A stretch of DNA of 63,018 nucleotides, the filler included, from Aduncisulcus paluster (Eukaryota): NCBI GenBank assembly GCA_024181965.1. It is 7 parts of 7 records of this genome, joined end to end, with 100 filler letters (N's around TTAATTAATTAA, not from the genome) between each part and the next. Parts side by side here need not be neighbours in the genome. Positions count along the whole stretch, not along the records: positions 1 to 21,972 come from BQXS01011157.1; 6 more parts are not named here. One strand, given 5' to 3'. The translations under genes and the position numbers were made by a program. A model generated the notes under the pieces. It was not told the origin of the DNA. It searched no databases and saw only the letters and a list, made by a program, of their open reading frames with translations. Positions 1 through 59,165 of the stretch are shown here, piece by piece (positions within the stretch are counted from its first letter, which is position 1; the number at the start of each line of letters is the position of its first letter).

Positions 1-1964
1 GCAGAAGGGAAAGCACACACAGCGAGTGCAAAGATAGGTTTGGCATTCATAGCATACACATCACTCAGAGCATTGGAAGCAGCAATGCGTCCAAAATCAA
101 CAGGATCATCAACAACGGGAGTGAAGAAATCAACTGTACTGACTAGCACTCTACCATCACCGATATCATACACACAGGCGTCATCAGCATTGTTCGTACC
201 AACAAGAAGAGCAGGATCATAAAATGGGGCAATTGAGCGAAGAGCACGTTCAAGGGCTTGTGGACGGAGTTTACAGGCGCATCCTTGACCACTTGTATAA
301 GCAGTAAGTTGCACTGAAGCATATTCAGGGAATAATGGACATCCAGACATGGAGGCAGATTCAGTCTCTTGAACGGTTTTAGTCTGCACAGATAATACTT
401 CTTCTTCTTCCTTTTCCTGTATTACTTCAACAGGGGTATCTGCCAATTGAGAATCATCTATTTTTAGCCAAATTCCTTCAGTTCCAATTTCATACCACTT
501 TTCACATGCTTCTACTAACATTTTACCAATTCTTTCTCCTAAAATACCACGGATTTCTCTTCCAAATAGTTGCCCACCTTCAATACATTCAGAACAAGAC
601 ACACCACATCCATTTGAAACACGAATAGTACCCATCGCATACTCAATGGGGCAATGAATGGCCTGCAAAGTATCAGAAATTTCTACGATGTCACTGTGAC
701 ACGCAGCTCCAGCACTCACAGATAAGGTTTTAGCTAAAGCGGCAGTAAGGGTATTTGCCTCGACTTGACAAAGGGAAATAGACAAAGTATTCGGAAGGAA
801 TGGACAAGATGATTGTAAAACATCACATGGAACTCTGATGGGCGAAGAATCATCCTTGGAGGCTGATCTGATAGAATCACATAATTTGTTTATACATTTC
901 ATAAATAATCCATGATGGAGTAAATAAGAAAGTATACCATTCAATTTAAACGCCTTCGAATGAAGTCTGATTTGAGATTGAACATATTTTTCAACAATGG
1001 GAATAGAGTCTGTCGATATTTCCATAACAGAATCTCCATTAAGATGACATAACATTGAATATAGAAAAGAAAGAGTACAAATAGCACTATCCATAACACG
1101 TGCTTCCATTTCTTCAATGGCCACAGCGGCAGCCTCCCCGAGAGCAATGATGGAGAGAACATTCTCAGTCCCTGGACGTAATCCATCTTCTTGGGCGGCA
1201 CCATGAATAACATTGTACTTTCTCACAATATCCTTGGCTCTGTCATTAGCACAGATCAAGCACCCGATTCCTTTCGGTGCATACAATTTGTGTCCAGCAA
1301 GGGTGAGAAAATCAACTCCGAGAGATGTAACAGACACAGGAACTTTCCCAATAGCCTGTGCAGCATCACAATGTAAGAAAGGAGTGAAAAAAGATTGGTT
1401 GGTTTGTGACCACGCAAGGACAGTCTCACATATCTTGTGAATGGGAGAAATAGTTCCAATTTCATTATTAGCTAACATAATACTTACACAAGCAACCGGA
1501 ATAGAATTTTTATCGAGTTCATGCTTAACCAAATCGGGAGTAACCTGGCCAAATTTGTTGACTGGCACAAAATGGAATTCAGCATTCATTTCTTCAATAA
1601 ATGGTTTCAATTCTTTGATTGCAGGATGTTCCATTTCAGAAATCAGAACCCTAACATGTGGTTTTTCAGACGAAGAGGAGGAAGATTCCAAATGATTCTG
1701 CAGACATTTTATACTGGCGATAATAGCAGCATTGTCGGCTTCAGTTCCACCACTATTGAAAACAACATTGGTGACATGGGTGTCCAAAAGCTTGCATAAA
1801 TTCCTCCTTGCCTTTGATATAGCCCGTTTACCAGCAACTCCTTCTTTATGAACCGAAGATGGATTGCCGAAGAGGCCAGTAAAATATCCATCTCCAATGG
1901 CATTTTTCATAATAGTTGCAACTCTAGGATGCAAAGGAGTTGTTCCATTATAATCCAAATACAT
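1..1964 (-). CDS. selD: NifS/selenocysteine lyase-like PLP enzyme fused to selenophosphate synthetase (SelD/SPS); 3' end runs off the window
   Basis: Hand-translated and stop-free from ATG 1964 to the window edge. NifS motifs: MYLDYNGTTP, GNPSSVH, FNSGGTEADN, EHPAI, MLANNEIG, HCDAAQAIGK, AGHKLYAPKG (PLP Lys 1287-1289), QEDGLRPGTEN, SAGAACHS (Cys 699-701). After an acidic linker come SelD motifs: LTAYTSGQGCACK, DDACVY, STVDFFTPVVDDPVDFGRIAASNALSDVYAMNAKP. Confidence 0.93.
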   Translation of the reverse strand, partial: MYLDYNGTTPLHPRVATIMKNAIGDGYFTGLFGNPSSVHKEGVAGKRAISKARRNLCKLLDTHVTNVVFNSGGTEADNAAIIASIKCLQNHLESSSSSSEKPHVRVLISEMEHPAIKELKPFIEEMNAEFHFVPVNKFGQVTPDLVKHELDKNSIPVACVSIMLANNEIGTISPIHKICETVLAWSQTNQSFFTPFLHCDAAQAIGKVPVSVTSLGVDFLTLAGHKLYAPKGIGCLICANDRAKDIVRKYNVIHGAAQEDGLRPGTENVLSIIALGEAAAVAIEEMEARVMDSAICTLSFLYSMLCHLNGDSVMEISTDSIPIVEKYVQSQIRLHSKAFKLNGILSYLLHHGLFMKCINKLCDSIRSASKDDSSPIRVPCDVLQSSCPFLPNTLSISLCQVEANTLTAALAKTLSVSAGAACHSDIVEISDTLQAIHCPIEYAMGTIRVSNGCGVSCSECIEGGQLFGREIRGILGERIGKMLVEACEKWYEIGTEGIWLKIDDSQLADTPVEVIQEKEEEEVLSVQTKTVQETESASMSGCPLFPEYASVQLTAYTSGQGCACKLRPQALERALRSIAPFYDPALLVGTNNADDACVYDIGDGRVLVSTVDFFTPVVDDPVDFGRIAASNALSDVYAMNAKPIFALAVCAFPS

Positions 1965-2162
1965 TATTTTATGACAAAATTGAGTTTTGGTTTTTCGAAG
2001 CCAAAATCTCTTTAATAGTGCAATATGTATTTTTTATTCTTAGTAAAATTTAATGATAAAGTTATTAACATATTTTATTGGAAAAATAGAATAACAATAC
2101 AGGAGATACACTACCGAAAAAACAAAATCGAGCGATTGTGGGATTTGATGACGTAATCAATT

Positions 2163-3309
2163 ATGTTAATTGATAAGACTAAATTAGTTATTGATTTAAA
2201 TGATATTGTATGTTCAACTATTGTCTTATTTTGATCCCTTTGTGTTTTTTTTTCATCTGATTTTTTTTTTCCAGTATATTCGAGCTGGTTGGGTTGGAGA
2301 GAAGAAAGAATCTTTCATTGTAAAAAACATCGTTGGGATATCAGATCTTGGGCATCCCCCAATATTTGGCGACGAATGTTATTCTACTGAAGATATTCAA
2401 ATTTTCCATCCAATTGAGTCTTCCAATGTTAATTCCTGGGAAAAACTCATGCTTATTCTTGACTTTGTTTTTAATTCCTTTGGAATTCATAATCGTCAAG
2501 ATGGTGTTTCCTCTACCGTCTCCCATGTTCTCATTTTAGTTCCTTATTCTTTCCCATTGTCGTCTCAATCCTCTCTCACAAGCAAAATATTAAAGAAATA
2601 TAATATTGGTAAAGCATTTACATATTCTTGTATGGAATTTGTTGCCCTTGCGCTTGGGTTAGAGACGGCTCTCATTGTAGCAATCTATAAATCAGAAACC
2701 CATGTTCTCCCAATTTTAAATGCATTTTCGCTCATTGATAATGCGAAATCATGTGATAAAGGATCACAGTGTATCATTGAATCATTTCATAAACTTTGCA
2801 AGTGCGATCGATCAAAAATACCTGAAATTCTTCGAAAGGTTGGATTTGTGAGTACAAATATCAAAAGAGATAAAAAATTGGCACAAGAAACATCAATATT
2901 CCGTTGTAAACTCCCTCTAACAGATGGAAAGACGGATTTGATGATAGAATCTGAGCGCTTTATGTGTTTCGAAGAGTTGCTTGCAACGAAGCAAAAAACT
3001 AAAGTTCTTGCAGAAAATGCAAGATGTACTTCAGTTCCTCAGTGTATCTATGAAAGTGTAGAATCAATTGCCTCAATTGCTAGGATTCCTATGTACAAAA
3101 GTATTATTATCATTGGTGATATTGTACACACATATATGGGGATTTTGGAAAGGATTCGTTACGAAGTTGATGATTTGGGGCATGTAAAAAAGGGTAAACG
3201 AATTGATCTACGATTTATTGATAATCCATATGGACAATCTATTATTTTTATAGGAGGTTGTAAGGCCTGCCTTCATAAGGCATTTTTGGATAAATTTTCG
3301 GCGAAATAA
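2163..3309 (+). CDS. Divergent actin-related protein (Arp2-like); join(2163..2207,2275..3309)
   Basis: Exon 1 MLIDKTKLVIDLNDI, then a 67-nt GTATGT..TTCCAG intron (2208-2274), joins in frame to YIRAGWVGE. Segments KLAQETS..LTDG..ERFMCFEELL and RFIDNPYGQSIIFIGG resemble Arp2. Confidence 0.7.
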
Positions 3310-3321
3310 ATTTTTATGGTT

Positions 3322-4075
3322 GTATTATACTATAATATTCATAAATAATGTTCTTTTCGATGCCCCCCAAATCTTCCAATCCCGGATTGTTTTTGGGCCA
3401 AAAATTGACAAGTTGTTTTGGATACACCGTTTTGAATCCAGCAGTATCAGGATAATTTCAAATTTCCTTACATTTGATTGCCAATTTAATCAAGAGTTTT
3501 TTTTTAAATCTTTACAAATCGTTTACGATCCATTCTTGCAAAATGTTAGTAAGAGGTACCAACTGAAATTGATGATAATTTTGTGGGCAATTTTTTTTTA
3601 AAGATTTGAATCAAATTGGTCTCATAAGTTATTTCAATGTCGAATACTGACGAATCATTGTTTTGTCATTGTTTCTCTTGTTGCCTTGGNNNNNNNNNNN
3701 NNNNNNNNNGTATTATACTATAATATTCATAAATAATGTTCTTTTCGATGCCCCCCAAATCTTCCAATCCCGGATTGTTTTTGGGCCAAAAATTGACAAG
3801 TTGTTTTTGATACACCGTTTTGAATCCAGCAGTATCAGGATAATTTCAAATTTCCTTACATTTGATTGCCAATTTAATCAAGAGTTTTTTTTTAAATCTT
3901 TACAAATCGTTTACGATCCATTCTTGCAAAATGTTAGTAAGAGGTACCAACTGAAATTGATGATAATTTTGTGGGCAATTTTTTTTAAAGATTTGAATCA
4001 AATTGGTCTCATAAGTTATTTCAATGTCGAATACTGACGAATCATTGTTTTGTCATTGTTTCTCTTGTTGCCTTG
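3322..4075. repeat. ~370-bp near-identical direct duplication either side of a 20-N gap (unmerged scaffold overlap)
   Basis: 3322-3689 is repeated from 3710 onward, with the gap at 3690-3709. Confidence 0.85.
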
Positions 4076-6154: not shown

Positions 6155-9100
6155 TCACAGATACTCTTGAGATTTTAACTCAAGGTTTTCGATCTTCTTT
6201 TTCTCGCCACCCTTTTCTTTTTGTTTTGAACCAATCATACGAATAATAACATTTTGTTGTTTTATCAAGGCAATTTGAGTCAATAGTGGGACAGGTTCCG
6301 CCGACAAAAATGAAGAGAAAGATTCTAGTTTATCATCAAGCTCGGAAGTATGAAATAACTTTTGAGGAATGCAACAACTTGGCATCTGTGGAAGATAACC
6401 AGTAGATTTAGAAGAAGCAGAAAGCAAAGAATCATCTGAGGATATAATAGGAGAGGAAGATCCACAGAAAGCTCCAATAACAGAATCCATCTTTCTTAAA
6501 AAATTTTTCATCAGTACTTCTTCCTCTTTCCTCTTCTCTTTCCTCGGAACCTTTGATTTCTTTTTTGAAAATGTAATATTGTATTCTGCGAGTTGATTGA
6601 AGGTCGTTTTCAAATCAAAGTCAGAATCACAGGCATCTCCATAAAATTCGTAGGAATATGAAGTATGCTTTGATGCTTTTTTAAGTTTAAGATTTTTAAC
6701 CAAAAGATTCGCCACCGTGGGCTTAAATATTTGTTTTGCCCCCATTCCAAGGACAAAGGATGTTTTGAGTCCATCATGAGCAGTTTGTGCATAAAAATTA
6801 TCGATAAGATGTTTTTCCTTTTCTCTTTCCTTTTCTCTTTCTTGTCCAATTTTTTCCGATTTTTTCACCCTTTTCCTCTTCTCTTTCCTCGGAACCTTTG
6901 ATTTCTTTTTTGAAAATGTAATATTGTATTCTGCGAGTTGATTGAAGGTCGTTTTCAAATCAAAGTCAGAATCACAGGCATCTCCATAAAATTCGTAGGA
7001 ATATGAAGTATGCTTTGATGCTTTTTTAAGTTTAAGATTTTTAACCAAAAGATTCGCCACCGTGGGCTTAAATATTTGTTTTGCCCCCATTCCAAGGACA
7101 AAGGATGTTTTGAGTCCATCATGAGCAGTTTGTGCATAAAAATTATCGATAAGATGTTTTTCCTTTTCTCTTTCCTTTTCTCTTCAGAATCCATCTTTCT
7201 TAAAAAATTTTTCATCAGTACTTCTTCCTCTTTCCTCTTCTCTTTCCTCGGAACCTTTGATTTCTTTTTTGAAAATGTAATATTGTATTCTGCGAGTTGA
7301 TTGAAGGTCGTTTTCAAATCAAAGTCAGAATCACAGGCATCTCCATAAAATTCGTAGGAATATGAAGTATGCTTTGATGCTTTTTTAAGTTTAAGATTTT
7401 TAACCAAAAGATTCGCCACCGTGGGCTTAAATATTTGTTTTGCCCCCATTCCAAGGACAAAGGATGTTTTGAGTCCATCATGAGCAGTTTGTGCATAAAA
7501 ATTATCGATAAGATGTTTTTCCTTTTCTCTTTCCTTTTCTCTGAATCCATCTTTCTTAAAAAATTTTTCATCAGTACTTCTTCCTCTTTCCTCTTCTCTT
7601 TCCTCGGAACCTTTGATTTCTTTTTTGAAAATGTAATATTGTATTCTGCGAGTTGATTGAAGGTCGTTTTCAAATCAAAGTCAGAATCACAGGCATCTCC
7701 ATAAAATTCGTAGGAATATGAAGTATGCTTTGATGCTTTTTTAAGTTTAAGATTTTTAACCAAAAGATTCGCCACCGTGGGCTTAAATATTTGTTTTGCC
7801 CCCATTCCAAGGACAAAGGATGTTTTGAGTCCATCATGAGCAGTTTGTGCATAAAAATTATCGATAAGATGTTTTTCCTCTTCTCTTTCCTCGGAACCTT
7901 TGATTTCTTTTTTGAAAATGTAATATTGTATTCTGCGAGTTGATTGAAGGTCGTTTTCAAATCAAAGTCAGAATCACAGGCATCTCCATAAAATTCGTAG
8001 GAATATGAAGTATGCTTTGATGCTTTTTTAAGTTTAAGATTTTTAACCAAAAGATTCGCCACCGTGGGCTTAAATATTTGTTTTGCCCCCATTCCAAGGA
8101 CAAAGGATGTTTTGAGTCCATCATGAGCAGTTTGTGCATAAAAATTATCGATAAGATGTTTTTCCTTTTCTCTTTCCTTTTCTCTTTCTTGTCCAATTTT
8201 TTCCGATTTTTTCACCCTTTTCCTCTTCCCATCACCGATCACCTCACCATTCAAATCATTCCCTTCTCCCCCCAAAGACTTAGCTTGTGCCTTCCTCGCC
8301 CTTTTCTTTTTCAGTCTATCCCTTTCACAACTGTATCCAAACATCGAGAGTCGAACACTCTCCCTGAACACAAGAGACAGGGGATGCTGAGACGCCAGAG
8401 GGAAAGGCGGAAAGGAAGAAAGAGGAAGAAGAGGCAAAGGAATGTGAGGAATGGACGAGAGAATGGAATTTAAAGACGAAATCCACATTGGATGTTGACT
8501 TGAAATATTACCCATAGTTTCTTGGTTAAAAATAAATGGAAGAAGAGGAACAAATTCACGAGAAAGGGCAACGGTAGAACCACGATTTCCTCTTGGACCT
8601 TTCCAATCAGACGCAGTATTTATGAGGTTTTGCTGAAAAACATATCTATCAACATTTCTGTGTCTCTCCACAACTTTTCTCTGAGAATACAATTGCTTTG
8701 AAACCATCAATTTTGGGGAAATCAAACTCTCATTTGTGTGTGAATATTCTTTTCTTATCCATTTTTGAGAAACAATGCCATTATATGACGAAAGATGAAA
8801 TATATCAATACCCAAGGCACCCAATGAAATAGTACACGCTCCACCGGAGACAATGCCTCGGCCTGAATTTTGTTGAATCATAATTGGATGAACATCTTCA
8901 ATTCCACTTGCAGTCGACTGACAAGAAGATACGTGAGGTTGTTGGAGATTGAAATGAACCCCCCCATAGTGTCTCCTGTGAAGAATTGAATCCCTTTCAC
9001 TCTTTCGCACAGTGACTTCATGAATATCATGCAATTCATCCTCAGATAGTGGCACAAGCTCATCAATTTGCTGCGAGGATACAGGGCCACATGGTGTGAT

Positions 9101-10597
9101 GAAGGCATCATCACCATACTTATCTAAGCATTTTGATGAGAGCTCAATCAATTCAGTTTTGTGGTCATTCCATAACGATAAATAAAGAAATCCATTTAAA
9201 CTATCATCTTTGGGGGAGTACTCATTGAGTCCACAATCACCAATATACTCCGTTTGGACATCATTGCTATTGTGGGGATTAACATTGCATCCCTTAACAT
9301 GAGAAAGACATCGAACACATGAGACAGGGTATCGCATGTTTCGTTCATCAAATATTCGAAGATATCCACCAGATATTACTCCCATTAAAGGTGCGGATTG
9401 ACAGGGAAACTTAATTGGAACAATATCATCCACACTCACACATGGCAGAAGACAATGAGGGAATAAATGGGTCTTATCGCAGCGAGGATCGATAAGAAAT
9501 GCACCACAACTGCCATGAAAGGTGTCAGAAATAGACATCCCCTCAGTCAAAGGAGAGGAAGATACCATTAATGGGGAAAAGCACCAGCAACATTGCATAC
9601 TTCCCTGATAACTGTGAAATAAACGAGCTTTCCCCCTGGATAAATCCGTCTCTGGAATGTTATAAGATTCAGAACAACGTAATCCATCGGACATACAGCC
9701 AAGGTAACTCAATTGACATTCATGGGAAAAGGTTGAGTTCCCGTCATTCTTTTCCCTTGATACACTAAATGCTCCATCGTGTACACAAGTTATACCACGT
9801 TCCCGAAGAATTCCATGATGTGGGCGTCCATTGAGCATGACACATCCGAGAGAACCAGAAAATGATACATCCCCTGATACAGAAGGAATATCCAAATAAT
9901 CATATTCTTCTTCAACAGAATAATCCTTTGTTTCGTCACAATATTCATTGCTATAACGATATTGCAACGAAATAACTTCGACTTCACCAAGACGACCCAT
10001 CGCCAAAACACGGTGATGAGACAAGGAAGAAGTATCATAGGTATCATTTAAACATTCATCATCAAACAAATTTACGCGATGAAATATATGTTCGTCACTT
10101 TCCTGATTGAGATAAACAATATCTTCCAAATTCATGGAATGATCAAAAGATCGAAGAATAGAACAATTTGAAGTTTTAGGATCATATTTTAGAGACGTGA
10201 TTTTAATTTTATCATTCTTTTCACCACGAACGGAAAGCAGATATTGTTTATCAGCATTACAATCACATTCTCCAAAATCACGTCGATATAAGGAATATGG
10301 ATTGGGTAAAGAAATTATTTTTCGTCGAGGTAAGGCGCAATTATCCCCCGAACGACCAGATAACCTCCAAATAGGAAGTTTGTGATAAGTAGGTAGGATA
10401 TCTGGCTTTAATATTGGAATTAGAGGGGAAAATGGCTGATAACAATGGAATTTATGTTTTAATTTTGATATATATGAATAATATGGAAAAAAACTATCGA
10501 TATAATCACATTTTCTTGAAACATCGTGTATGGAATTCTTAGATGATATATATTCAACACCTCCAAAATTAATAGGAGATATACAATGCAAATCCAT
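6155..10597 (-). CDS. Large hypothetical protein interrupted by a 5-copy internal tandem repeat; weak TAF1C/Rrn6-like resemblance
   Basis: First ATG at 10597 (MDLHCISP). ORFs 7670..10651 and 6155..7090 share a frame and become one gene if 1347 nt of repeat are collapsed. LRIFDERNMRYPV recalls the TAF1C DER..P motif (weak). Confidence 0.5.
6531..8229. repeat. Five tandem copies of a ~290-360-bp coding segment
   Basis: CTCTTCTCTTTCCTCGGAACC starts at 6531, 6876, 7235, 7591 and 7878 (spacings 345, 359, 356, 287). The cores look identical. Confidence 0.92.
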
Positions 10598-10737
10598 CCT
10601 ATTATAATTCCTCCATCGACCAAAACCACCCCAAAACAAAAAACACTGCAATGAGTACTACTCAATGCAATAATTTTTATTAATCGCAATAAAATATTAT
10701 GAAACCGCTGAAATACAGTGAAATAGTATAGAACAAT

Positions 10738-12643: not shown

Positions 12644-15060
12644 ATGAGATTCAATATCACAAAGTTTGTCTTGTTGGATTTTGACAGCTCCACAATGTCC
12701 AAGCAACCAAACCTCATAATATATGGACCAAATAATTGTAAAAAACGCGAATTATTATGCAAATGTCTACAATTATCGTATTCTGGGAAGAAATTCTCTT
12801 CTGGAATCAGCGGAATTAAATTCTCTGTTTATGATAAACACAAAACATTAACAATCCCAATTCATGTAATTGATTGTATGTATTGATTTATATTCCCGTC
12901 TATATTTTCCCAATTCCATTATTTCTGGGGTTCTAAACAAGTTCAATTGTTCATTTTTTTTCTTTATTCTGTTTATTTTTAGCAAGTATTCCTTTCCAAA
13001 TTGTATCAAAATACCTTGATAAAGCATCCGCAATTATATTTTGCTATAATTCTGGCCTCCCTTTGACCATTGAAACATTTTCGTCTTTCCATAAAATTTT
13101 AAAATATCTGTCGCCAGAATCACACTTTCCAACAATGTGCATTGGCTATTCTGCAGAATCTATTCATTCTGAAAATGAGAAAAAATTTAAGAGCCTTTGT
13201 AAAGAGCATGGAATTGGAGATATTCTTCACAGTTCCCTTTCCCTCCATGATACCTGCAATATTGCGGTATTTGAACCAATAATTCGAAGTATTATTCATA
13301 AAGTACTTGCGGAAGAAAGTTTTTCTTTTGATCTTGATCATTGTTTTTGTGACCCCTTATATTTGGTTTCTCCTCGTATGTCATGTTCTTTTATTCACTG
13401 TGAAAATGTAGAAAACGACCAATTTGATGATATTATTTCCATGTATCGATCTTGTAAGCATTCAAAGTGCTCTAGATCTTCATTAATGACTGAGGATTAT
13501 TTTCTTGTGAGGCACGTTTCCATAGGAATGCAATTTTTAGAAAAAACATCCAAATCCCCATTACACCATATAAAAGGCATTTATGTCCATGGAAAACATC
13601 TTATTTTTGATGAAATAATGGATAAAAATCCAGATTTTAAAGATTTTGAAGAATTGACTTTTCCTTTGTTTCCTCTTTCGTTTGCTTATGTATTTATTTA
13701 CTCTGTCCATTCAGCCAAATCCCTTGTTAATGCGATAAAAATAATGCGTGAATTTGTTAAAAGACCAAAAATGTTTAAAGCTTCTTTCCATCTTCTTGGT
13801 ATTCAGAATTTTGGCATATCCAATGTTAATATGTATGCCGAACTCTTTTGCAACTCATTTAATAATCCTCAATGCCATGTTTCCCATGAAATGATCAACA
13901 TTTCTTCTGTTGACCAAATGGTACCATTTTTTGAAAAAATTGTTCAATATAATTTTTCACAGGACAATGCCGTTGATCTTAAAGATTTAAATCGTCTTAT
14001 GAAATCAGATACATCCGACTTTGAAGAGGCAAAAAGTTCTCCATTGCCTATAATCCCACCATTACCCTCTCCTTCAACCAAATGTTTGAAATCTATTCCT
14101 GAGCTTCATATTCTTCATGATACCACTGAAGACCATAGAAAATTCCTCTTATCATCCCAAGAAGCCCTTTCAAAATACATCCAACATCGTGGCTGCTCTA
14201 TCCCATCTCTCATAATTTCTCCCCAAGTTCCTCTTGTTGCTTGGGGAACTCTTCCCACGCTCTTAGATTCCTACCTGCCTTATCTCGATGAACACACGTG
14301 TCATATTCCTAGCAGCAATATTGAAGCTTTCACAACGCATCCCCTCGACAGTGACATTTTTCTACCCTACAAATCCTCCTATTTGGAGAAATACTCTCCT
14401 CATTACATTCCACTGGATCATCCGATCGATATTTCTTTCCATTCACAAGGAAATCCGGCTACTTGTACGGTCGATTTTATCTGTGTAACATTTTCTTGCT
14501 TACAAAAATTAGAAGAAAAGTATCAGATCCAAAAATCAAGTAACGTTGTCGTTTTTTGTTACGATGAACAAAAGAAGGTCTGTTCTGAGACAATATTTGC
14601 CATTAAGAATATTGTTTCTGGATTTTGTTCCACTTTTCTTTTTCCTTTGCACACCGATTCCGAAAAAAAAATCCACCATATTCGACTCGAATTTTACTCA
14701 TTCTCATCTAACATTCTTCTGAGGAATATTTGTATGTTTTACAAGGACCAATTACCACAATCATCAGCCATTTCTGTGCCTGAAGGAATAGATTCCAAAT
14801 TTGATGTATCTTTCCCATTTCTCCAAACCTTCAACTCAACCATTGATGATCAAGCAAGAAAGCTTCTGCAAAATAAGCGTAAAATCATGGAATTGCAAAC
14901 CATGATTGTTCAAGCCCGCAAGCAAATTGATGCTCTAAAAAAAGAATGTTCAGGTCTTGAAAGCCGCTTTCCAAGTCGAGAAGAAAAAGAAAAAACAATT
15001 ATCCAAAAAGAAGTCAAGTTGTTGGAGAAAAAATTATTGGAAAAGATGTACCAAAAATAG
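12644..15060 (+). CDS. Hypothetical protein with two degenerate Ras-like domains and a C-terminal coiled coil; join(12644..12875,12983..15060)
   Basis: A phase-1 intron 12876-12982 (GTATGT..TTTTAG) links the two track ORFs in frame. Alternative start ATG 12695. Confidence 0.65.
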
Positions 15061-16981: not shown

Positions 16982-18004
16982 ATGTGCGAATTTAGTTTTA
17001 CATTTGCAGAGATTATGGGAGAGAAACCTGAAGCTCCCAAATCCAAACGAGTTATTGCCTTATCAAAGGCTCAACAGCAAGGAAAGCTTCTAAATCTTGA
17101 AGAAACGAAATATTCGGTCGATAAAACTTGTCTTGAGAGAGCTTCTGCCCTTGATTTCAACCGTTTCTTATGTATTGCCAGACCACAATACAAATATTCT
17201 TGTGGATTATCTTCTCTTGTTAGTGTATGGAATTATTTGTTTTCTACAATTTCAGGTAAAACTCAACCAGTTATGACTCAAGAAGAGGCTTTAACAATTC
17301 TTGGATTTCCTCCACCATTCTCCACCATTCGTTTTGGTCCATTCACTGGTAATGCCACCCTTATCCGTTGGTTTGGCATGTTGTGTAAATCCCGTGGAGT
17401 TCGTGGAAAATCTGGATATCTATTTAAGAAATATGGAAAACATAAAACTGGAATTACGCCTTCCCATGCTCTCAGTAACTTATGTACTGCTCTTTCCTCC
17501 CCAAATGTTGGTGTAATATATCATTTGAGGAACCATTATGATGTTCCCATTGGTTTTCATTGCACTCCAGAGAAGCCTTGTTCAGCTTATAAGGGACTTG
17601 ATGAGAGTGAATTTCCTCCCTGTATTTCGAAAGGAACCTGGATATTTATTGGAGATCCTTCAAGAGGTACACAACCTATTCGATCCCTGAGATGGTCGTT
17701 TATTGTCAAGGATCTCACGTCATCGCCTCCATATTTTTACGACGCTAGACACCCTGAAAAGGGCCAGTTGGAATTCAAAAAAAGTGAAGTACCACCACAA
17801 GACACCGGAAAAGAGATACCAAAAGAAGATACTGATAAAGAAGATACAAAGAGTGAAGATCATGAATCTGAACCATCATGCTTTGATGAATTATCCGAAG
17901 ACGAAGACTCCGAGAAGAAACCCAAGAAAAAGAAGCCAAGGAATATCCATTGTTTATTATATTTCACGAGCGATGAATCTCTTTCATTTTCAGAGGGTAT
18001 ATAA
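16982..18004 (+). CDS. BIVM: BIVM (basic immunoglobulin-like variable motif) family protein
   Basis: CIARPQYKYSCGLSSLVSVWNYLFS, TQEEALTILGFPPPF..IRFGPFTGNATLIRWF, YH..NHY..PIGF and NIHCLL. True start may be ATG 17015. Confidence 0.88.
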   Translation: MCEFSFTFAEIMGEKPEAPKSKRVIALSKAQQQGKLLNLEETKYSVDKTCLERASALDFNRFLCIARPQYKYSCGLSSLVSVWNYLFSTISGKTQPVMTQEEALTILGFPPPFSTIRFGPFTGNATLIRWFGMLCKSRGVRGKSGYLFKKYGKHKTGITPSHALSNLCTALSSPNVGVIYHLRNHYDVPIGFHCTPEKPCSAYKGLDESEFPPCISKGTWIFIGDPSRGTQPIRSLRWSFIVKDLTSSPPYFYDARHPEKGQLEFKKSEVPPQDTGKEIPKEDTDKEDTKSEDHESEPSCFDELSEDEDSEKKPKKKKPRNIHCLLYFTSDESLSFSEGI

Positions 18005-18034: not shown

Positions 18035-20439
18035 CTATTCTGCACTTTCCTGAATTATTTTTGTGATTTGTCTTAATGGAATCACAAGATAGAAACATTT
18101 TTTCGCTGTCATTTCGTTTAAAAACTCGATAATTGCCATCCGAATGTTAACCATATCCCCGATCGATTCTTTTGGCAGCTTTCGATATTTTAACAAACAC
18201 AAACAAGTGAGTAGCAATAAAGAAAATCCAATAAAATGCGCAATATCATCAATAAGAATCCCCTTGACCTTGACCTTTTCGATTGATAAGGCAAGATGAA
18301 TTAACATAGAGGCGGCTGAAAAGGGAAGAAACGAGGTAATTGAATAAGATTTATCCACAGTCCTTCTACTTAACTCCCGAAGTTTCTCAGAAATTCTATG
18401 AATAGAAAATAAACTAAAATCATCACCCCATTCCTTGAATGTATCAAAATCAGAAAAATTGTTCGGAATAAAATAATTATTTTTGAAGAGTGATGGCATT
18501 GAACAATATATGGAATTGTCAGAAGGAGAAATATGGACCATGGCATAACATAATGTAGTGAACAAATGGAACATATATGATTGAATTGGAATCAAAAAGT
18601 TTGCTGGAATAGCTTTGTAGCCCATCAAAATGCTATAATACAGATGGAATGGAATAATGGAGCCAATGTTGGGTATTCTAGAATCACCTTCATGTGCATA
18701 TCCGCTTTCAGAGTCACTTTTGTCAGATTGCGTGGAAGGTAAATATGGCGAATAATATCTATTTTTATCACGTTTTGAGAACCTACTCAATACCAAACAT
18801 TCATGCAGTATTTGTGGCAACCCAATCGAATTATCACATTTATCAACCTCAATTGTATCAATTTCCTTTTCTTCTTTGCAACTCGAAATACAATGCTCAA
18901 TCATCAAATTTAGAGTTTTGGCAATTTTTTTGGCAATTATTTTCTGTTCATTTTTCAAGTTACTCTCTGCCACCTGGTCAATTCCTTCGCTTTTCCCCCT
19001 TCGTTTCAAAGATTTCATTTCGTTTTCCCATTCAAACTTTTCTTTTAGAAATCCTGCCATCGTTTCTCGAAGTTCCATTTCTTTTTCAAACACGTCTTTT
19101 CTCATTTTCCCAAATTGTCCTCCTGTAATCCTATCTTTTCGACATTTGTTGTGGGCTTCTATCAAAAAAATCTCATTTTCTAAGGGAACATAACGAATTC
19201 CATTAAAATATACTGATTTACGTGGACGAATTGCCCTCATAATAGAAATAACCATTGGAAAATACACATCTTCAACAACAAGTGGATAATCTAGCTTCAA
19301 ACATTGCCCAGCAAGTACGATTGCAAGAAGTCCTGCTGGAGTTGAGTTTGCCCATAATGAATAATGATACAAACTTTTAAAGAGAGAAGTGAATGATACT
19401 TGTTCCGACTGAAATTTGGAGCTTCTTCGTGTCTTCTCCTTTGTGGCAACAACTTCCCGAATAAGGTCTCTCACAACCCCCTCAGTATGAACTATTTTTG
19501 TCCGCCGTGAGAAGATTCCTCCTTCCAACAGGGGTGTATCATATCCGGATGCACATACACTAGCACTTTCTTCCTCGACTTTCTTAACTCCGACACGATC
19601 TAAGCGCAAAATTACATTGGAGAGATTAATACTTGGGTCCAGACATTGTTTAATAAAAAGAGATAGAGAATCTTGATGAGAGCTGTCATGATTCGCAAAT
19701 AAATGGAATAAACACACAAGATAATTTTCCAAATTTATAGATCCAGTCTTAAATTGCTTTGGATAGTCCTTTGAAACTCCAAGATCTGTTGATTGACTGA
19801 TAGTCTTGGATCTGCATAAAGTGCGATAAATCCTCTCTAAATCACCAAAATACTCACAATCATTGAAGAAAGAAACGACTCTTTGGGAAGCAATCCAAGA
19901 ATAAAGAGGTAATATACGAGATTGTGGCATTTTACGAAAAGAGAAACAAGAATCATAGCGTTTTGGATCTTCTACTTTGGAAATCGGAGAATAAATGCCT
20001 CCAAGATAAGTAGAAAGCATTGCAAAACTATTGATGGGATTCATAAGTTGAAGAGAAGAAGGAGAGAAAGATAGGGAAATGGCATGACTGGGAATAGGGA
20101 GACACAGTGAGATTTGATGAAATAATGGCAACAAAGAAAGCTCTACAGATGCGATTTGACAAGCTTTTGTCGATAAAGACTCAGAAGGGAGGAAAACAAC
20201 ACTTTCTAATATAGCACGAATGAGAGTATCTCTAATTGAATCATTTTGAATAGCACAGCAATCTAAAAGTCTATAGACTTGATCAACTATTCATAAAAAC
20301 CGTCGAAACCCCAGAAAAATAAAAATTTGTTAAGAATCATAAAATACAAAAAATAAATATTAAATAACCTACAGGTTTCACTAGTCTCTTCAAAGTTATC
20401 GAAATTATTGATACTTAAAAAACTGACTATACTATGCAT
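18035..20439 (-). CDS. Hypothetical protein with a probable short 5' exon (20439..20373)
   Basis: The frame stays open upstream of the track start to ~20290. Putative exon 1 MHSIVSFLS..ETSET is followed by GTAGGT, with phase-compatible AG acceptors. No recognisable domain. Confidence 0.55.
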
Positions 20440-21948: not shown

Positions 21949-21972
21949 CCATAACCACGCAATGTCCTGCAA

Positions 21973-22072
21973 NNNNNNNNNNNNNNNNNNNNNNNNNNNN
22001 NNNNNNNNNNNNNNNNTTAATTAATTAANNNNNNNNNNNNNNNNNNNNNNNNNNNNNNNNNNNNNNNNNNNN
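21973..22072. other. Artificial contig linker (N-TTAATTAATTAA-N); others at 31289-31388, 38228-38327, 42790-42889, 46845-46944, 59066-59165
   Basis: Six identical 100-nt spacers with a core that gives stop codons in all frames. Confidence 0.97.
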
Positions 22073-31288: not shown

Positions 31289-31388
31289 NNNNNNNNNNNN
31301 NNNNNNNNNNNNNNNNNNNNNNNNNNNNNNNNTTAATTAATTAANNNNNNNNNNNNNNNNNNNNNNNNNNNNNNNNNNNNNNNNNNNN

Positions 31389-38227: not shown

Positions 38228-38327
38228 NNNNNNNNNNNNNNNNNNNNNNNNNNNNNNNNNNNNNNNNNNNNTTAATTAATTAANNNNNNNNNNNNNNNNN
38301 NNNNNNNNNNNNNNNNNNNNNNNNNNN

Positions 38328-42789: not shown

Positions 42790-42889
42790 NNNNNNNNNNN
42801 NNNNNNNNNNNNNNNNNNNNNNNNNNNNNNNNNTTAATTAATTAANNNNNNNNNNNNNNNNNNNNNNNNNNNNNNNNNNNNNNNNNNNN

Positions 42890-46790: not shown

Positions 46791-47142
46791 TCGAAACTGT
46801 TTTATTGACCAATATTTCGGAAAATTGACCATTTTTTTCTTCATNNNNNNNNNNNNNNNNNNNNNNNNNNNNNNNNNNNNNNNNNNNNTTAATTAATTAA
46901 NNNNNNNNNNNNNNNNNNNNNNNNNNNNNNNNNNNNNNNNNNNNAGTTGAAAGATACATTTAAACATTTTCAAATCGTAATAGTTATCTTTTTATATTTA
47001 AAATTCAGGAATATTTTTGGATATCTTAAGTATCTCTCCTGATAAAAAATGTGATTGACCACAGCCTTATTTATCGACTTAGAAACAAATACTTTTAAAA
47101 ATAAAATTTTATTTTAAGTGGTATGTGGAATTAGAGTATTAA

Positions 47143-59065: not shown

Positions 59066-59165
59066 NNNNNNNNNNNNNNNNNNNNNNNNNNNNNNNNNNN
59101 NNNNNNNNNTTAATTAATTAANNNNNNNNNNNNNNNNNNNNNNNNNNNNNNNNNNNNNNNNNNNN

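Follow-up and report, generated by a model that had tools for sequence, protein, structure and literature searches.

The first 1,964 positions of the window, the whole 63,018-nucleotide stretch of Aduncisulcus paluster DNA that was analysed, were originally predicted to encode a selenocysteine lyase/NifS-like enzyme fused to selenophosphate synthetase (SelD). We asked whether this protist has such a fusion gene, what the joined enzyme might do and where the gene came from. The window is a concatenation of contigs, with N spacers (paired 44-N) at positions 21973–22072, 31289–31388, 38228–38327, 42790–42889, 46845–46944 and 59066–59165, and genes past position 21,972 are therefore not neighbours of the fusion gene.

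Results

Architecture of the fusion gene

The minus-strand frame running from position 1964 to position 3 starts with an ATG at 1964 and comprises 654 codons with zero stops (Table 1). Translation, Pfam, NCBIfam and AlphaFold agreed with the predicted content of this frame, namely a NifS domain, an acidic linker at about positions 320–480 and the start of SelD, and no intron is needed across the visible part. Pfam matched both domains for which a check had been proposed, Aminotran_5 at residues 1–293 (E = 6.5e-38) and AIRS at residues 594–653 (E = 2.1e-14), and TIGR00476 (selD, NCBIfam) scored 137.9 bits on the cut fragment alone, against a cut-off of 125. With a NifS-like N-terminal part and a SelD C-terminal part in a single frame, the ORF belongs to the NifS–SelD (NifS–SPS) fusions. 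The ORF track had indeed missed it, for the sole reason that the 21,972-base contig ends, at its first base, before the frame reaches a stop. Within the window, tblastn detected no second copy of the NifS half or the SelD half.

An AlphaFold model based on a 144-row alignment had a mean pLDDT of 86.9 and superseded a model based on only 12 rows (pLDDT 55.6). Confidence was high over residues 1 to about 493, and pLDDT fell below 50 only at 496–548, the linker, in which residues 500–545 include 11 Asp/Glu and 3 Lys/Arg. In the Foldseek ranking of PDB structures, human and rat selenocysteine lyases came first, followed by Nfs1 and IscS (E of about 1e-29 to 1e-27). The insertion region of the small domain is longer than in bacteria and partly common to other metamonads. 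Introns were ruled out as an explanation of the insertions, which are in frame, contain no stop, are unspliced in sequencing run X2 and have homologous stretches in relatives.

Table 1. Features of the fusion ORF, with positions counted along the window
Feature	Position	Strand	Residues, basis or remark
Visible part of the NifS-like/SelD fusion ORF	3..1964	-	654 codons; 3' end open, contig ends at window base 1
Group-I NifS/SCLY-fold PLP domain, complete	486..1964	-	Residues 1–493; Pfam, NCBIfam, AlphaFold, Foldseek
Pro114, at the position of human SCLY Asp146	1623..1625	-	Alignment; not Asp
Lys226, PLP-binding lysine	1287..1289	-	Invariant in 144 rows
In-frame insertion region, NifS small domain	801..1058	-	About residues 303–388; modelled as helices
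Cys422, persulfide/perselenide-forming, GAACH loop	699..701	-	Alignment
Acidic linker, predicted disordered	321..479	-	Residues 496–548; model pLDDT
Cys542 (Cys-Pro), near the linker end	339..341	-	Alignment
N-terminal part of Cys-type SelD	3..320	-	NCBIfam; alignment with E. coli SelD

Distribution of NifS–SelD fusions

Both halves were present in 119/119 best non-self matches, nearly all of about 735 aa. A fused ORF was found in at least 47 prokaryote loci among the 80 loci listed from GTDB genomes (at least 601 pattern matches), and the bacterial fusions listed came from Bacteroidota, Ignavibacteriota, Chloroflexota, Calditrichota, Cloacimonadota, Zixiibacteriota, Planctomycetota, Myxococcota and others. 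Eukaryotic fusions occurred in the fornicates Chilomastix cuspidata, Kipferlia bialata (partial), Spironucleus salmonicida and Hexamita inflata, in the heteroloboseans Naegleria lovaniensis and Willaertia magna, and in dinoflagellates (Biecheleria cincta and a cluster with a Cladocopium member). Among the best 120 matches to a metamonad profile (8 rows), which included a record of Caldithrix abyssi (P0367), Chilomastix was the only named eukaryote, reflecting a ranking limit and not absence. NifS–SelD fusions had been taken to be reported only sporadically; their broad spread among protists and bacteria, seen both in our searches and in the published members, removes the supposed novelty.

The neighbour scan covered 68 of 151 listed ORFs, from 41 bacterial loci. 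The genes selA–selB lay directly upstream of the fusion at two of the 41 loci and mnmH at three, while no selenium gene was found among the one to three nearest ORFs at 36. The searches also recovered other arrangements. One protein of 1115 aa (P0297, JGI) is an MnmH–NifS–SelD triple fusion, whose MnmH and SelD parts pass their cut-offs and which unites all of the selenouridine pathway in a single polypeptide (MnmH being tRNA 2-selenouridine synthase). A GAACH-type NifS is joined to an AlaX-like editing domain (tRNA-synt_2c C-part plus tRNA_SAD) in P0144, P0155, P0216, P0231, P0241 and P0254, and to a Maf domain in P0147. One fusion gene has a second, stand-alone SelD (L061:8375–9340, minus strand) as its tail-to-tail neighbour, and another stand-alone SelD (L027:8212–9081, minus strand) lies tail-to-tail near an unfused GAACH-type NifS.

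Origin of the fusion gene

Separate trees, which had been proposed as a check, were built for the NifS and SelD halves, without animal SCLY and canonical eukaryotic SPS2; each half grouped with those of other fornicates. The NifS half of Aduncisulcus formed a clade with Spironucleus, Hexamita, Chilomastix, one further row and a Tritrichomonas foetus NifS (P0133). This clade was supported at 100/99 in a careful tree of 30 rows and at SH 99 in a quick tree of 52 rows, the careful tree leaving out 22 rows (long unrelated, partial and redundant ones, with E. coli IscS among the 22), and it was nested inside the bacterial fusion family. In the tree of the SelD half, the same further row grouped with the five named fornicates at SH 83 (unstarred). 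Spironucleus and Aduncisulcus were long branches in the trees, and no bacterial donor phylum was singled out. P0133 (OHS94303.1, 445 aa) is a stand-alone protein, sister to Chilomastix (98/98) with the insertions of the clade, and seems to have arisen by fission with loss of SelD.

The distance from the first motif to GNPSS was 29–34 residues in five metamonad rows, compared with 24 in 40/40 measurable bacterial fusions and 24–26 in other eukaryotes; likewise, the distance from GTEN to the LPNT strand was 71–125 residues in metamonads versus 56–63 elsewhere. The metamonad clade and these agreeing indels together thus favour a single old acquisition out of the bacterial fusion family, which would have occurred no later than the base of Fornicata and perhaps no later than that of Metamonada. 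A lateral gain specific to this lineage, which had been raised as a possibility, is accordingly disfavoured, since the gene groups with those of other metamonads and has indels in common with them.

In 6/6 fusions of the metamonad clade, the stretch of 24 residues that precedes the start motif of SelD contains a cysteine, which is part of a Cys-Pro in four of them and is nearer to SelD in Chilomastix. A linker cysteine also occurred in 4/4 rows of another clade and in one further row, in 0/7 heterolobosean, dinoflagellate and related rows, and in 1/44, 1/119 and 3/105 rows of mostly bacterial sets, which overlap in kind. By composition alone, 6/6 would arise with a chance of about 0.012 for independent rows, but these six are not independent. 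The linker cysteine may be a selenium relay, or merely inherited.

A bolder reading of the trees and the linker is that, in place of scattered recent transfers, one ancient eukaryotic fusion gene already existed before the split of Fornicata and Parabasalia, possibly common to Heterolobosea and dinoflagellates as well, and was later split (only the NifS half persisting in Tritrichomonas) or lost. In the metamonad branch, Cys542, preserved in a linker that otherwise defies alignment, would pass selenium from Cys422 to Cys562 as a swinging relay. AU tests did not reject a single eukaryotic origin (p = 0.584 and 0.562 for the two halves), a result that does not show a clade, and metamonads and heteroloboseans joined at 91/93 in the careful NifS tree. 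In the free trees, metamonads, heteroloboseans and dinoflagellates stood apart. We consider this combined reading rather unlikely.

Active sites and substrate of the NifS half

The NifS half contains the PLP-binding and catalytic residues His113, Asp200, Gln203, Lys226, Cys422 and His423. The lysine, the His/Asp/Gln set, the cysteine in an SxGxAC loop and the fold were all those of the group I NifS/IscS-like PLP enzymes. In the SelD half, the active-site residues are Cys562, Cys564, Lys565, Asp595, Asp612, Asn631 and Asp635; Cys562 and Lys565 align with Cys17 and Lys20 of E. coli SelD, the former encoded as cysteine with no UGA, and together with the conserved Asp/Asn residues and the TIGR00476 score they place this half in the SelD family. 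The SelD half matched E. coli SelD at E = 1.8e-66 and human SEPHS1 at E = 5e-27, indicating a bacterial-type, Cys-form SPS. The active-site residues of both halves were invariant in 44/44 long bacterial fusions and, wherever covered, in all 15 other rows, among them every eukaryotic one.

The SAGAACHS sequence at residues 417–424 aligned with the SCLY catalytic loop. The predicted resemblance to SCLY thus extends to the loop and to His423, the equivalent of His389, but not to the residue governing specificity, Asp146 of human SCLY, whose position is occupied by Pro114; the position of Val256 is occupied by Ala223. In human SCLY, Asp146 alone gives selenium specificity, and His389 and Val256 are not decisive (PMC3266270). 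The NifS half lacks the Asp of mammalian-type SCLY, and Pro occupied this position in 44/44 bacterial fusions. Selenium preference is nevertheless possible without Asp at the position of Asp146, as reported for SclA of Enterococcus faecalis (bioRxiv 10.1101/2020.02.07.939272). Scored against the NCBIfam equivalog models, the NifS half passed none of the cut-offs (NifS 244/531, IscS 187/643, SufS 74/475, SclA 40/525; score/cut-off), and its substrate is therefore not fixed by family. Because Asp146 is absent, the label 'selenocysteine lyase' comes from context. Judged from its residues, the NifS half is predicted to work like a NifS-type cysteine/selenocysteine lyase and not like a mammalian-type SCLY.

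The NifS half might instead be mainly a cytosolic cysteine desulfurase for tRNA thiolation, Moco or Fe–S synthesis, linked to SelD by a tether of convenience, with SelD receiving its selenide from elsewhere. Such a role would fit Pro114 and Ala223, the clade member without SelD in T. foetus and the top NCBIfam scores of the NifS half, which were those of the NifS, DndA and IscS models. However, the fusion to SelD has been kept over many phyla, with 78–82 residues between the GAAC loop and the SelD motif in 40/44 bacterial fusions, selA, selB or mnmH adjoins some of these fusions, a His389-type loop was present in 44/44, and the best matches in both structure and sequence were SCLYs. A predominantly desulfurase function is thus improbable, although cysteine may well be a second substrate.

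Completion of the SelD half

The database copy of the fusion protein (P0002) stops at the same base as the frame in the window. Two other records continue it: P0272 (456 aa, EukProt) was identical to residues 482–654 (173/173) and provided 283 residues more, and P0130 (399 aa), from a different contig of 6,104 bases, was identical to residues 539–654 (116/116). In the representative search, both fell into one cluster with P0271 (195 aa). AIRS and AIRS_C were both found in P0130 and P0272, outside the window, and P0272 scored 325.7 with TIGR00476 (cut-off 125) and 323.4 with PRK00943 (cut-off 299). Once the frame is followed past the window edge, the SelD C-terminus is thus whole and not truncated in these identical records, implying a full-length fusion protein of 937 residues with a whole SelD, pieced together from overlapping records of which none spans the whole length. 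P0271 (NCBI, 1,426-base contig) matched the SelD half without a difference for 175 residues but carried foreign sequence at both ends, which suggests that the source assembly includes small contigs that are chimeric.

In sequencing run X2, one contig covered positions 210–1889 with no difference or gap, bridging the linker and both insertions, and a second contig reached 156 bases beyond window base 1. The continuity across positions 300–500, proposed as a check by RNA-seq, was thus found in a contig unbroken through the linker, but the identity of X2 as RNA is only guessed. Run X2 had no cover over 1890–3680, which was not counted as evidence, and run X1 yielded no long piece. An 82-base contig of X2 (depth 147) matched positions 210–239 and then continued with 52 bases absent from the window; this branch at position 239 (residue 576, inside SelD) is possibly a library chimera or a second copy.

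These records bear on whether the locus also, or mainly, gives a stand-alone SelD from Met482 or Met539, or whether an unfused second copy exists elsewhere. The start of P0272 is Met482 and that of P0130, which comes from another contig, is Met539, and X2 branches at position 239. Both methionines are, however, starts of the kind that gene callers assign to 5'-incomplete pieces, the gap-free X2 contig was identical across the linker, and every named relative whose record is complete has the fused form. Furthermore, the branch lies after Cys562, so that a functional SelD could not have an alternative 5' end there. A separate SelD from this gene or a second copy is thus very improbable.

Genomic setting

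Pfam identified eukaryotic genes on the contig of the fusion gene (1–21,972), with actin-fold, ankyrin, MORN, EAP30, RRM, longin-SNARE and Snf7 domains. The actin-fold ORF at 2200–3309 (plus strand), highly divergent (Pfam Actin E = 3.8e-17), is head-to-head with the fusion gene; it starts 236 bases from the fusion ATG, across an AT-rich spacer of 235 bases with no N gap. GC3 was 0.28 in the fusion ORF and 0.24–0.41 in 10 other ORFs on the contig. Together with the trees, this setting indicates that the fusion ORF is most probably nuclear and belongs to an anaerobic flagellate of the Fornicata (Metamonada). That a bacterial contaminant or a chimeric assembly has been joined to a protist contig, as the dispensability of introns, the bacterial origin of the best-scoring matches and duplicated stretches in the assembly might suggest, is extremely improbable in view of the gap-free link to the actin-fold ORF, the GC3 like that of its neighbours, the indels and clade common to four other metamonads and an identity to bacteria of only 42–47% (aligned columns).

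Near-exact duplicated blocks (3254–3709 and 3710–4037) surround an N gap, and C-terminal segments of an ORF at about 7670–10657 are repeated at 6155–8211; both sets look like assembly artefacts. Pfam gave no match for the long ORFs at 16982–18004 (plus), 13135–15060 (plus), 18035–20044 (minus) and 7670–10597 (minus). ARAGORN found 0 tRNAs within the window, and a scan of the window for TGA readthrough returned five loose candidates, but a convincing CxxU gene context accompanied none of them. The window likewise showed no tRNA-Sec, EFsec, SecS, PSTK or SECIS-bearing gene.

Discussion

Considering these results, we propose the following scenario, which we regard as highly likely: the fusion gene of A. 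paluster encodes a cytosolic-type enzyme of about 937 residues that belongs to the known NifS–SelD family, derives from one old acquisition and functions in the conversion of selenocysteine to selenophosphate. The NifS half would remove selenium from free selenocysteine, derived from digested prey or from the organism's own selenoproteins, in a PLP-dependent reaction that leaves the selenium on Cys422 as a perselenide. Because the filter provided by Asp146 is missing, this half probably acts on cysteine too. The tethered SelD would accept the selenium at Cys562 and, with ATP, form selenophosphate for Sec-tRNA synthesis, and the flexible linker may hold the two dimeric enzymes close, resulting in less free selenide. 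Direct hand-over of selenium between the halves is plausible, because the separate enzymes SCLY and SEPHS2 of Trypanosoma brucei bind each other (bioRxiv 10.1101/2020.01.28.922716). Selenium use by the Aduncisulcus lineage is supported by analogy with its relatives, since Spironucleus uses selenium and its fusion has been read in the same way (PMC3916229).

NifS–SelD fusions were first mentioned in PMC2398784. The study of the Spironucleus SPS–NifS fusion proposed that its selenocysteine lyase activity feeds selenophosphate synthesis, the fusion being otherwise known to its authors only from Caldithrix (PMC3916229). Fusions of Geobacter sp. FRC-32, Caldithrix, Naegleria gruberi and Acanthamoeba were later listed, with the protist copies ascribed to horizontal transfer and the speculation that the fusion may use NifS-derived selenium only (PMC4561486, Supplement S2). 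The Spironucleus gene is upregulated by 1.5–1.6 log2 under oxygen (PMC6397501), and selenocysteine biosynthesis also occurs in Preaxostyla (PMC10703272). In the accessible parts of bioRxiv 10.1101/2023.05.03.539051, SelD is named only in the legend of a supplementary cysteine-desulfurase tree, and PMC7762791 contained no selenium passages. The literature searched, which included few subscription papers, yielded no biochemical study of any NifS–SelD fusion and no account of the fusion across free-living fornicates.

The S. salmonicida protein (EST43726.1/P0302) resembles that of Aduncisulcus in its NifS-like N-half, Cys-type SelD C-half and catalytic residues, in falling into a common clade in both domain trees, and in its N-terminal and small-domain insertions and linker Cys-Pro. 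The two proteins are, however, only 37% identical (aligned columns), and the Spironucleus protein has 821 aa compared with the 937 implied here, the insertions of Aduncisulcus being larger. The fusions of Caldithrix abyssi, Geobacter, N. gruberi and Acanthamoeba castellanii share with the Aduncisulcus protein the domain order, a bacterial-type SelD and the proposed selenocysteine recycling, but the SelD active site of Geobacter has Sec instead of Cys, the bacterial fusions of about 735 aa are without the metamonad insertions, and the Naegleria and Acanthamoeba genes have introns, whereas the visible part of the Aduncisulcus gene needs none. Mammalian SCLY (PDB 3gzc, 3a9x), the top sequence and structure match of the NifS half, agrees with it in fold, PLP site, GAACHS loop and the His after the catalytic Cys, but is a stand-alone enzyme with Asp146 and Val256. 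Similarly, the Cys17/Lys20 motif and the ATP/metal aspartates of E. coli SelD (PDB 3u0o; TIGR00476) align with the SelD half, although the E. coli enzyme is unfused, whereas the SelD of Aduncisulcus lies behind a PLP enzyme and has an insertion of about 25 residues in AIRS_C.

The arrangement found in Aduncisulcus has thus already been published, for Spironucleus and others, and is common in anaerobic bacteria, so that our results are mostly confirmatory. They show that the fusion is not confined to the parasite Spironucleus but occurs in free-living fornicates as well, so that its origin shifts from a replacement specific to diplomonads to an older event, early in metamonad evolution. They also indicate that, among anaerobic bacteria, the family is much more widespread than the two published species would suggest. 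Furthermore, the invariant Pro at the position of Asp146 raises the question of how, or whether, the fusions discriminate selenium from sulfur. Natural NifS–SelD fusions provide a single-chain system for the passage of selenium from selenocysteine lyase to selenophosphate synthetase.
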